45,805 nucleotides of DNA, from sequence record NC_019718.1, one strand, 5' to 3'. Origin of the DNA: Enterobacteria phage vB_EcoS_Rogue1. Positions 3,387 to 40,304 of the stretch are shown one piece after another. Positions within the stretch are counted from its first letter, which is position 1, and every line of letters starts with the position of its first letter. The notes below the pieces were generated by a model. The model was not told where the DNA came from. It did no database searches and was given only the letters and a program-made list of their open reading frames with translations. A program made the translations under genes and the position numbers.

Positions 3387-3462
3387 GTTCTGCTGGCGTA
3401 ACAGGATAACGCAGAGACCTCCTAAGTCTCAGTTGCTGGTTCGAGTCCAGTGCGGAACACCA
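3387..3462 (+). tRNA. tRNA-Arg, anticodon CCU (reads AGG)
   Basis: Hand-folded cloverleaf: acceptor GTTCTGC/GCGGAAC (one G-U pair), D-stem GCGT/ACGC, anticodon stem GAGAC/GTCTC, loop CTCCTAA with U33 and A37, 4-nt variable loop, T-stem GCTGG/CCAGT, T-loop TTCGAGT, discriminator A, encoded CCA; 76 nt. Confidence 0.85.
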
Positions 3463-37866: not shown

Positions 37867-38120
37867 ATTTACCTGGTCTAGATTTTGATGAGAGTAAGTA
37901 TCAGGTTGTGTTTTTTGGTGAGAAGCCTTATCGGAAGATTCCTTTCTCTGAGTGGATTCCTCCGGACTACCTCGATGTACTGGTGCAAATTGAGATTGGT
38001 AAAGCTGAGTTGATGTACTATTCGCCAGGTTGCAATATGATGATGCCTAGTGAGTATTCACCAGCAATTTCTTCTCTAGAAACTGAGTTTCTTGATTACT
38101 GGCTAAAAGAAGTAAAATAG
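37863..38120 (+). CDS. hypothetical protein (85 aa)
   Basis: Coupled ORF (ATGA overlap); stop overlaps the next palindromic box. Confidence 0.5.
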   Translation: MNLPGLDFDESKYQVVFFGEKPYRKIPFSEWIPPDYLDVLVQIEIGKAELMYYSPGCNMMMPSEYSPAISSLETEFLDYWLKEVK

Positions 38121-38160
38121 CACTTTTTGTTAAAACACATCGCCATGGATGGCGTATAGT
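38118..38160 (+). promoter_or_regulatory. palindromic box TAGCA-CTTTT-TGTTA, 22-bp spacer, -10 TATAGT (38155-38160), leader CATCGAAACGAGAGA
   Basis: Box family member; a 22-codon hydrophobic mini-ORF (38188-38256) lies in the leader before the phosphoesterase gene. Confidence 0.55.
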
Positions 38161-38271
38161 GTGTTCATCGAAACGAGAGACGATTCAGATGAAAACATTA
38201 CTACCGTTGATGGCTATGCCATTAACCTTTATAATCATGTACTTCATAATCTGCTAACAGGAAATTAAATA

Positions 38272-39405
38272 ATGGCTATAGCTAAAATCACCAACGAAGA
38301 GTTAAAGCAAGAACTGGCTAACGGTATGACTAACAAGGCAATCGCAGAGAAGTACGGTATGAATATTCGTAACGTAGAGCTGCGTCGCAGCAAGTTGGCT
38401 AAGGCTGGGGATGGTCACGGTCGCGATGTGAGTAACCTAATTCCTCAGGGCTACATGGTTAAAGGTGTATCTAGCCTTGTTGATAATGATGGCAATGTGA
38501 AGTTGCAATGGGTTAAGTCCTCTATTGATGCAGAGAAGCTTGAGGAGATGATGAATCAAGCGCGAGAGGCATTCTCTAGCGAGCTACCAAAAGAAAAAGC
38601 AGTTAAATCTGAAGGTCTGAATTTTGATGAAGATACTTTAGCTATGTATCCAGTATTTGACCTTCACATTGGCGCAATGGCCCACAAGCATGAGTGCGGA
38701 GAAAACTACGACACAGCAACGGCAGAGAAAGTAATGAACGATTATTTTGACTACGCCGTACAGAAATCTCCAAATTCAAAGAATGCTGTACTAGTGCTAG
38801 GAGGTGATCTGCTTCATTATGATTCTTTGGAAGCCAAAACTCCAGCCAGTGGTCACATCCTGGACAGTGACAGTCGCTACGCCAAGATTGTTTATGTTTG
38901 CATTCGAGCGGTTCGCCGCGCAATTCGAAACATGCTTAGCAAACATGAAAACGTAGAGGTTAAAGTTATATCTGGTAATCATGATGAAAGTGGTATGGTT
39001 TGGTTGCGGGCTGCGCTTGCTGCATTTTATGAGGAAGAGCCACGCGTTAGTATTGATGTTAGTCCCGCGGCAATGATGGTAACTAAGTTTGGTTCTACAA
39101 TGCTTGGTTTCACTCACGGGCATCAAATGCGTAAAGCTGATACTCGCCTTTCGGTTATGGCTACTGACTGGCGACGTGACTTTGGTTTAAGTGATTATGT
39201 ATACACCCACTCAGGCCACTGGCATTCACAGAAGATTACAGAGACAAATCTTGGTATTGATGAGGTTCATGGTCAGCTTGGTTCACCAGATGCATATAGT
39301 GCGAATGGTGGATGGCGCTCACAAAGGCAGGCCGCGGTAATCATCTATCATAAAGAGTTTGGTGAGGTTGGTCGCTTTATCTGCCGTCCAGAAATGTTCA
39401 AATAA
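38272..39405 (+). CDS. calcineurin-like metallophosphoesterase with N-terminal HTH-like region
   Basis: Motifs FDLHIG (D-x-H), GGDLLHYD (GD-x-x-D), GNHDE and GHWH in canonical order; N-terminal LKQELANGMTNKAIAEKYGMNIRNVELRR resembles an HTH. Confidence 0.7.
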   Translation: MAIAKITNEELKQELANGMTNKAIAEKYGMNIRNVELRRSKLAKAGDGHGRDVSNLIPQGYMVKGVSSLVDNDGNVKLQWVKSSIDAEKLEEMMNQAREAFSSELPKEKAVKSEGLNFDEDTLAMYPVFDLHIGAMAHKHECGENYDTATAEKVMNDYFDYAVQKSPNSKNAVLVLGGDLLHYDSLEAKTPASGHILDSDSRYAKIVYVCIRAVRRAIRNMLSKHENVEVKVISGNHDESGMVWLRAALAAFYEEEPRVSIDVSPAAMMVTKFGSTMLGFTHGHQMRKADTRLSVMATDWRRDFGLSDYVYTHSGHWHSQKITETNLGIDEVHGQLGSPDAYSANGGWRSQRQAAVIIYHKEFGEVGRFICRPEMFK

Positions 39406-39420
39406 TATCACTTTTTGTTA
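39406..39420 (+). promoter_or_regulatory. degenerate palindromic box TATCA-CTTTT-TGTTA followed by a GC hairpin
   Basis: Abuts the phosphoesterase stop; downstream -10 unclear. Confidence 0.3.
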
Positions 39421-39470
39421 AAGCCCTTCGAGGCTTTTGAGATGCGTCAGCTACAGATATAGGAATCAAA

Positions 39471-40130: not shown

Positions 40131-40304
40131 ATGACTAAATTATTCTGCGTTAGCAACAAATCAAAATCACTGCCTTTCACTGTAAACAACCCTTACAGTG
40201 GTGAGTACCAGGGGGATGGTAATTATAAGATTTATGGCGATGACATGACTTGGATCTTCGCTCCCATTGATGGAGAACTGGTGGAATTCATTATCGCAGA
40301 CTAA
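40131..40304 (+). CDS. hypothetical protein (57 aa)
   Basis: ORF below the track cutoff, found by manual translation; followed by a terminator. Confidence 0.35.
   Translation: MTKLFCVSNKSKSLPFTVNNPYSGEYQGDGNYKIYGDDMTWIFAPIDGELVEFIIAD

Follow-up and report, generated by a model that had tools for sequence, protein, structure and literature searches.

A helix-turn-helix-fused metallophosphoesterase of phage vB_EcoS_Rogue1 and its relatives: a candidate stand-alone DNA nuclease of the Mre11/SbcD/PolD-DP1 branch

What does the metallophosphoesterase encoded at positions 38,272 to 39,405 of Enterobacteria phage vB_EcoS_Rogue1 (NC_019718.1) do? A first-pass annotation of this sequence, whose 45,805 nucleotides (nt) we analysed as a whole and refer to as the window, had suggested three activities for the 377-amino-acid (aa) product: protein phosphatase, degradation of nucleotide signals, and DNA nuclease. 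Our analysis best supports the last of these and does not support the other two, since the top structural matches of the protein are DP1, Mre11 and SbcD, its motifs I and II are Mre11-like, and an N-terminal helix-turn-helix (HTH) is its most conserved part. Our preferred reading, to which we assign a probability of roughly 0.5, places the protein in the Mre11/SbcD/PolD-DP1 branch as a nuclease that stands alone and is tethered to DNA, most likely for use in host-DNA breakdown. The gene and the domains of its product were mapped as follows.

38272..39405, + strand: phosphoesterase coding sequence (CDS), 377 aa, ATG start; orthologue of T1 gp16/ST16, PHROG 704
38259..38263, + strand: Shine-Dalgarno sequence AGGAA of the phosphoesterase gene, read from the sequence, with an 8-nt spacer to the ATG at 38272
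38284..38412, + strand: LuxR/sigma-70-region-4-type HTH, residues ~5-47 (model helices, family profile, Pfam)
38452..38583, + strand: family-specific connector of a beta-hairpin (residues 61-85) and a helix (87-102) that joins the HTH to the catalytic domain (model, alignment)
38626..39402, + strand: divergent binuclear metallophosphoesterase core, residues 119-377, with the five motifs DLH (130-132), GDLLH (178-182), GNHDE (235-239), HGH (282-284) and GHWH (315-318)

Identical annotated proteins and thousands of homologues show that this open reading frame (ORF) is a real gene. The "phosphoesterase" gene of Escherichia phage vB_EcoS-UDF157lw has the same DNA sequence (100% identity), and the product of the window gene is Rogue1 protein YP_007112259, annotated as "DNA repair exonuclease" (100% identity); both phages are members of Rogunavirus (Drexlerviridae). 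ST16/gp16 of phage T1 is the orthologue, with 76% protein identity. The protein matches PHROG 704 "DNA repair exonuclease" over its full length (E 1.7e-155, residues 4-376 against positions 2-389 of the 390 in the profile), a family whose name is an annotation and not an experimentally based function. Indeed, the names given to homologues clash across databases and include DNA repair exonuclease, phosphoesterase, oxidoreductase, Ser/Thr phosphatase and winged-HTH protein. The gene is already catalogued as a member of a known family and its protein is in the databases, and no major concept is altered by our findings.

To characterize the catalytic domain, we used a family alignment of 78 diverse sequences, with members down to ~30% identity, and an AlphaFold2 model built on this alignment (pLDDT 92, pTM 0.76). 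The five-motif set of the calcineurin-like superfamily (PF00149 clan) is entirely in place and invariant or nearly so in the 78 sequences, and the model shows the beta-sandwich fold of this superfamily. Motif I consists of D130-L-H132 in the context FDLHIG, motif III of G235-N236-H237-D238-E239 and motif V of G315-H316-W317-H318, while H282 sits within THGH. Motif II reads G178-D179-L-L-H182-Y-D184 in the context GGDLLHYD, i.e., GDxxH as in Mre11. Mre11 typically has a histidine three residues after the motif II aspartate, and its exonuclease activity is linked to this residue. D130, H132, D179, N236, H237, H282 and H318 are invariant in the alignment. The earlier description of a complete calcineurin-like phosphoesterase with an N-terminal HTH thus holds on the strength of motifs, model and family profile; of the motifs it had listed, D-x-H, GNHDE and GHWH are borne out, whereas GD-x-x-D was misread and is GDLLH.

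The catalytic domain is nevertheless divergent, because the window protein reaches only 19.7 bits against Pfam Metallophos and stays below the gathering cut-off of 21.5 bits. At E<=0.01, Metallophos was detected in 19 and Metallophos_2 in 16 of the 78 family members. In the model, the core ends ~60 residues past motif V, leaving no space for a C-terminal capping domain. Within the connector, G74 and W80 are nearly invariant in the family alignment.

Structural comparison of the model, which the first-pass annotation had proposed as a check, ranked the nucleases above the other phosphoesterases. The proofreading exonuclease PolD DP1 came out on top (15.9), followed by T. maritima Mre11 (14.6), S. 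aureus SbcD (14.4), MJ0936 (14.0), eukaryotic Mre11 (13.3) and LpxH (13.2), with the Rv0805 cAMP phosphodiesterase (12.0) and the PP5 protein phosphatase (9.6) further down. A Foldseek search was consistent with this ranking led by PolD DP1, Mre11 and SbcD. When the single protein sequence was used to query the PDB, no meaningful match came up.

The same data bear on a possible function in Ser/Thr/Tyr protein dephosphorylation, as in phosphatases of the lambda NinI/PPP type. NinI and the window protein are both phage-encoded phosphoesterases and share a superfamily, and the labels "protein phosphatase" or "serine/threonine protein phosphatase" are attached to some homologues. However, the PPP signatures GDxHG and GDxVDRG, which would align the protein with NinI, are missing and FDLHIG and GGDLLHYD stand in their place, PPP enzymes rank low in the structural comparison, and a fused HTH is ill-suited to such a role. 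We therefore consider a protein phosphatase highly improbable.

The N-terminal domain consists of three helices in the AlphaFold model (residues 8-16, 21-28 and 32-44). Taken alone, the window protein shows a weak GerE match (E 0.038) that is below the cut-off. At the level of the 78 family members, Sigma70_r4_2 was matched by 13 (best 1.5e-9), GerE by 7 (best 2.4e-8), HTH_1 by 16 and HTH_8 by 11, and many further homologues carry precomputed Pfam HTH matches. The family profile also matches the structures of GerE, RhlR, VraR, DesR and FixJ. The previously noted HTH-like segment of ~50 aa is thus supported by family-level Pfam matches and the three-helix model, whereas the single-sequence evidence is weak. 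Among 120 Drexlerviridae homologues, conservation peaks in the HTH (residues 1-50), where mean identity is 78%; the catalytic domain reaches 70% and the linkers 36%. Residues 24-44 are nearly invariant. From the profile matches and the model, we infer that the predicted HTH binds DNA.

How widespread is this protein? An exhaustive HMMER search retrieved 4,677 cluster representatives at E<=1e-3 (clusters at 50% identity). Most of them span 370-400 aa, indicating that the HTH-phosphoesterase architecture is conserved. Of 50,697 phage records searched by tblastn, 2,015 contain a homologue; the phages include Drexlerviridae, Kagunavirus, Jerseyvirus and Dhillonvirus as well as phages of Vibrio, Xanthomonas, Rhodobacter, Ruegeria and Campylobacter. 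Hence, ~4% of sequenced phage genomes carry the gene, including nearly all T1-like phages. A published survey reports it in 508 of 522 Drexlerviridae (PMC13164509), which makes it a persistent core gene and not an accessory one.

This persistence weakens the earlier suggestion of an accessory counter-defence gene among early genes, as do the adjacency of the gene to the lysis cassette and its positions behind Q and near terminase genes in other phages. A related proposal is that the protein is a counter-defence phosphodiesterase that destroys immune signals, such as the cyclic oligonucleotides of CBASS, cCMP/cUMP of Pycsar or the signals of Thoeris. Its active site is complete, and phages do encode signal-degrading enzymes, among them Acb1 and Apyc1, which are phage-encoded phosphoesterases like the window protein. 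Yet the known anti-CBASS and anti-Pycsar enzymes have other folds, Acb1 being a 2H enzyme and Apyc1 a metallo-beta-lactamase (MBL) fold protein. Furthermore, motif II is the Mre11-type GDLLH, the Rv0805 cAMP phosphodiesterase ranks under the nucleases structurally, and a DNA-binding-type HTH that is the most constrained part of the protein has no obvious use on a soluble small molecule. The presence of the gene in 508/522 Drexlerviridae also differs from the usual variability of accessory anti-defence genes. Database models provide no link either: no family among the PADLOC defence/anti-defence models matched the window protein at E<=1, and an NCBIfam search with it returned sub-threshold fragments only. 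Taken together, direct signal destruction appears very unlikely. An indirect counter-defence effect through host-DNA destruction is possible by analogy with Gp48 of a mycobacteriophage (PMC12287305).

If the protein acts on DNA, does it need a partner? In the window, the gene belongs to a rightward array that encodes a helicase, a VRR-NUC protein, small ORFs, the mini-ORF described below, the phosphoesterase, further small ORFs, a DUF7244/SH3 protein, holin, endolysin and spanin, and it thus sits at the border between the DNA-metabolism and the lysis/packaging modules. We surveyed more distant neighbourhoods through 275 ORFs from 80 distant IMG/VR loci. Neither the annotated homologous genome, nor T1, nor these 275 neighbour ORFs contain a Rad50/SbcC-like ATPase. 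Because the context varies and no such ATPase is found among the neighbours, the phosphoesterase appears to work without a fixed partner. The range of contexts is illustrated by the following loci.

Dhillonvirus: phosphoesterase gene between lysis and terminase genes
Xanthomonas temperate-type phage: phosphoesterase gene downstream of the Q antiterminator and upstream of terminase
Kagunavirus UTEC10 (locus L006, 5772-8167): island of Imm_superinfect, phosphoesterase, HAD_PNKP and a P-loop protein, within tail genes
Phage PCEc3 (locus L014, 2706-3736): phosphoesterase, then an annotated polynucleotide kinase (PNK) gene and a hypothetical gene
284-kb phage contig: phosphoesterase gene close to PIF1 helicase and PolA

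In the UTEC10 island, Imm_superinfect is a 63-aa membrane protein and the HAD_PNKP protein matches the 3'-phosphatase family with E 8e-19. Families that recur around the 80 distant loci are HAD_PNKP, lysozymes, holins, small and large terminase subunits and Imm_superinfect, and also dGTP_diPhyd_N, GNAT acetyltransferases, EndoVII, RusA, NinG and Dam; dUTPase genes likewise occur among the neighbours of distant homologues. In Drexlerviridae without the SH3 gene, PNK or deoxynucleoside monophosphate (dNMP) kinase most often follows the phosphoesterase (PMC13164509).

The gene arrangement in UTEC10 and PCEc3 suggests a nucleic-acid end-processing or nucleotide module. This raises the possibility that the protein is an end-healing or nucleotide-pool phosphoesterase that acts together with a PNK/3'-phosphatase or a dNMP kinase on 2',3'-cyclic and 3'-phosphates or on (d)NDP/(d)NTP, without cutting DNA. 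In bacterial Pnkp, a calcineurin-type domain is used in end healing. The neighbourhoods are consistent with such a function: HAD_PNKP and a P-loop protein follow the gene in UTEC10, HAD_PNKP accounts for 9 of the 140 ORFs scanned downstream at the 80 distant loci, more than any other family, PNK and dNMP kinase are next in many Drexlerviridae (PMC13164509), and dGTP_diPhyd_N and dUTPase genes are among the neighbours. Moreover, a defence module is described that joins a calcineurin-like enzyme and a HAD phosphatase to strip dNTPs (bioRxiv 10.64898/2026.01.15.699771). However, the PNKP neighbour is missing from both the window and T1 and so cannot be obligatory, a ligase gene was not observed in the vicinity, and the HTH together with the Mre11-type motifs indicates polymeric DNA as the substrate. 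On balance, we regard this explanation as unlikely.

Two further features of the window were recorded apart from these considerations. The DUF7244 protein, a stand-alone SH3-like protein (E 3.5e-29), is encoded at 40131-40304 on the + strand, just 5' of the holin-endolysin-spanin cassette, and corresponds to the SH3 gene of a recent publication on T1-like phages (PMC13164509). A tRNA-Arg gene with the anticodon CCT lies at 3387-3462 on the + strand (Rfam 56 bits; ARAGORN).

The phosphoesterase gene is preceded by a second, very small gene.

38189..38257, + strand: hydrophobic 22-codon micro-protein gene, product MKTLLPLMAMPLTFIIMYFIIC, with its stop 14 nt upstream of the phosphoesterase ATG

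The first-pass annotation had pointed out this mini-ORF, and comparison with relatives confirms that it is real and conserved. All 10 Drexlerviridae examined, which represent several subfamilies, have a hydrophobic ORF of 22-30 codons that ends 3-14 nt before the phosphoesterase start. Relatives differ by a 3-nt in-frame indel, and differences by codon position are lowest at the second position (e.g., 9/1/14 and 16/6/18). Since second codon positions vary least, the micro-ORF shows the pattern expected for a translated hydrophobic peptide. It belongs to no PHROG family and its exact sequences were not found among ~15 billion predicted proteins. In more distant loci, which are not independent of each other, a small transmembrane ORF lies directly 5' of the phosphoesterase in 19 of 76 cases (25%), whereas the background rate at the other long ORFs of these loci is 11 of 279 (3.9%). 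Judged from its sequence, the micro-protein is a predicted membrane protein that is conserved in Drexlerviridae and had never been annotated, and its gene represents a concrete addition to the annotation of this family. A rival 39-aa ORF at 38149-38268 on the + strand, which is a CDS in the Phleasolo record and overlaps both the box element and the micro-ORF, is probably spurious. We rejected it because it is missing in T1, Phagiculus, MM01 and others, all of which do conserve the hydrophobic frame.

Both genes are framed by a repeated intergenic element.

38121..38134, + strand: upstream copy of the 14-nt box CACTTTTTGTTAAA, abutting the TAG stop (38118-38120) of the preceding ORF
38141-38154, + strand: short hairpin CGCCATGGATGGCG, part of the composite element
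38155-38160, + strand: -10-like hexamer TATAGT, part of the composite element
38165-38179, + strand: conserved leader TCATCGAAACGAGAG; the composite element spans 38141..38179
39409-39422, + strand: downstream copy of the box CACTTTTTGTTAAA, overlapping a weak terminator-like hairpin
39420-39438, + strand: this weak terminator-like hairpin, AAAGCC-CTTCGA-GGCTTT and then T, overlapping the downstream box copy
Box starts in the window (- strand in brackets): 12052, 22538 (-), 34354, 37435, 38121, 39409, 43728 (-), 43926 (-), 45723 (-)

With four exact copies on the + strand and five near matches, the box CACTTTTTGTTAAA occurs 9 times in the window compared to 0.68 expected by chance. Its consensus is CACTTTTTG(T/C)TAAA, and in most cases a stop codon (ATAG) directly adjoins it. 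What comes next is either a hairpin terminator or, ~22 nt on, a TATAnT hexamer and an TCATCGAAACGA leader. The composite element runs from the stop codon through the box, often a GC-rich hairpin, a TATAAT-like hexamer and the TCATCGAAACGA leader to the Shine-Dalgarno sequence and ATG, and the same order is found at other box copies and in other Drexlerviridae. At the upstream copy, the GAGAG of the leader TCATCGAAACGAGAG probably serves as the Shine-Dalgarno sequence of the mini-ORF. The box is common to T1, Phagiculus, MM01, Phleasolo, SECphi27, Brooksby, LF82-12 and two Drexler-like contigs from IMG/VR. It flanks the phosphoesterase gene on both sides in the window, and in Phagiculus, MM01, Phleasolo and LF82-12 a copy immediately follows the stop codon of the corresponding homologue; in the records of T1 and MM01, the hairpin equivalent to that of the downstream copy is annotated as a terminator. 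The box is a family-wide intergenic element of Drexlerviridae, and the elements appear to mark transcription-unit boundaries.

Is the box a promoter, as previously proposed? The presence of a repeated box upstream of the mini-ORF is correct, whereas the promoter function did not find support. TTGTTA and TATAGT are 22 nt apart at the 38121 copy, the distance from TTGYTA to the -10-like hexamer is 21-23 nt across copies, and a scan with the sigma-70 consensus called no promoter at the box elements. Given this spacing and the missing sigma-70 call, the box is a putative promoter, terminator or regulator site. A structured RNA was also considered and rejected, as the box elements fold no better than shuffled sequences (z -1.1 for the upstream element) and belong to no Rfam family.

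The co-occurrence of box and HTH raises the question whether the protein is a sequence-specific regulator, in which a sigma-4/LuxR-like HTH recognises the box CACTTTTTGYTAAA with the -35-like TTGYTA inside it and the phosphoesterase domain is auxiliary. In line with such a role, the box stands on both sides of the gene and is repeated 7-9 times in the window, the box and the HTH recognition helix (residues 24-44, nearly invariant) are both conserved in Drexlerviridae, and 13/78 family members match Sigma70_r4_2. This support is purely correlative, however. Kagunavirus and Dhillonvirus have a related HTH yet no box in the 10-13 kb examined, many homologues are without the HTH, and the phage has other candidate regulators. 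The invariance of the catalytic residues throughout the family indicates that catalysis is the selected function, which counts further against a regulator. We consider this role quite unlikely.

We therefore return to the stand-alone nuclease and to how it may work. Micro-protein and enzyme appear to be transcribed as a small unit, with the box element first, then the 22-codon micro-protein and then the phosphoesterase. The LuxR/sigma-4-type HTH would bind DNA, and the beta-hairpin and helix would link it to the catalytic core, where a two-metal site (D130, H132, D179, N236, H237, H282 and H316/H318) would hydrolyse DNA phosphodiester bonds. The predicted Mn-dependent nuclease would need neither a Rad50/SbcC ATPase nor a capping domain. 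Its likely role would be DNA turnover during infection, especially breakdown of the host chromosome; we infer this nuclease activity and the host-DNA target by analogy with T5 A1 and Gp48. Any counter-defence effect would be indirect, via the destruction of host DNA.

Several points weigh against this view. The sequence similarity to Mre11 is marginal (E 0.05), and the ranking of DP1, Mre11 and SbcD over other folds, which is based on a model, is not decisive by itself. Comparisons by hhalign, hidden Markov models (HMMs) and BFVD revealed no specific relationship to T5 A1. Bulk DNA degradation has no obvious need for a sequence-specific HTH, and the HTH is wholly missing in some lineages, e.g., in Vibrio and Campylobacter phages. 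In some phages the gene has a late-operon position, after Q or beside terminase genes, and early host takeover therefore fits poorly. Literature searches found no biochemical or genetic work on the phosphoesterase family, and those directed at the T1/Drexlerviridae gene, SECphi27 escape mutants and the genetics of host-DNA degradation by T1 yielded nothing usable. T1 itself reportedly degrades host DNA and has mutants defective in doing so (Roberts and Drexler, 1981), which would fit the nuclease reading.

A broader version of the proposal, which we put forward tentatively and regard as rather doubtful, is that the micro-protein and the HTH-tethered Mre11-like nuclease together represent the T1-family counterpart of T5 A1, i.e., a destroyer of the host chromosome, and possibly the classical host-DNA-degradation function of T1. 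By way of the box CACTTTTTGYTAAA, the HTH would then direct or restrain the enzyme, whose localisation or gating would fall to the micro-protein. Degradation would feed nucleotide salvage, blunt inducible host defences and yield breakdown products sensed by systems such as ApeA, PUA-Cal-HAD or Hachiman. If the protein is indeed a host-DNA-degrading nuclease, the T1 family would gain a defined host-takeover enzyme beside T4 gp46/47, T5 A1 and Gp48, and a likely source would be identified for the signals of DNA breakdown to which a number of recently described defence systems respond.

Among known systems, Mre11/SbcD and PolD DP1 are the closest in structure. In the family profile alignment (E 0.05), the motifs DxHLG, GDLLH, GNHD and GHxH are in register with T. 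maritima Mre11, and motif II is of the GDLFH type, its histidine three residues past the aspartate. The phage protein differs from Mre11/SbcD in having no capping domain and an N-terminal module of HTH and beta-hairpin instead, and in having no Rad50/SbcC ATPase gene near it, either in the window or in the 80 related loci. DP1 is the archaeal 3'-5' proofreading exonuclease, and several related phage proteins in BFVD are automatically named "DNA polymerase II small subunit". However, the identity to DP1 is 10%, no OB-fold was identified in the phage protein, and DP1 is an obligate polymerase subunit whereas this phage has no polymerase. The ligase-associated repair nuclease MPE/PdeM of Pseudomonas putida (PDB 6nvo) differs as a single-domain protein of ~200 aa that lacks an HTH and is encoded in a bacterial repair operon.

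Two phage proteins provide functional precedents. Gp48 of the cluster A mycobacteriophage A10ZJ24 is a phosphodiesterase and DNase in vitro, and by degrading the host genome it silences defence genes (PMC12287305). By its description, it is likewise a phage-encoded five-motif metallophosphoesterase. Its motif I starts at residue 10, leaving no HTH module, and it is dispensable in M. smegmatis, in contrast to the family-wide persistence of the T1-type gene. A1 of phage T5 is a predicted metallophosphatase that has been likened to double-strand-break repair nucleases and polymerase proofreading subunits, and it is necessary and sufficient for host-DNA degradation (bioRxiv 10.64898/2026.04.02.716235).

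A1 has the same five motifs as the phosphoesterase (GDIH, SNHD, HGH and GHTH in A1), is a core gene and a hallmark of its family of phages, and has distant relatives of ~530 aa with an N-terminal Pfam HTH. Directly upstream of A1 lies T5.005, which encodes 65 aa with two transmembrane segments. In the left terminal repeat of T5 (locus L011, 1706-4134), the transcription order is A2, a DNA-binding protein, then T5.005 and A1, an arrangement that parallels the micro-protein and the HTH-phosphoesterase; A2 shows no similarity to the phosphoesterase HTH. A1 differs in its size of 556 aa, with ~230 extra residues before the catalytic domain, and belongs to the pre-early genes, with A2 being required as well for DNA transfer. 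We tested membership of the phosphoesterase in the A1 family (PHROG 1745) and rejected it, as BLASTP, hhalign, HMMs and BFVD give superfamily-level similarity only. BLASTP between the two proteins gave E 0.9 or worse, reciprocal HMM cross-scores were 12-19 bits, and hhalign probabilities ranged from 24 to 45% over whole-profile and catalytic-domain comparisons (catalytic domains 45%, E 2e-4). A1 matches PHROG 1745 only, not PHROG 704, and is not among the top 50 of the BFVD fold search with the phosphoesterase model. For this reason, we did not file the phosphoesterase under the A1 family. By analogy, the phosphoesterase of the T1-like phages may work like A1 without belonging to its family.

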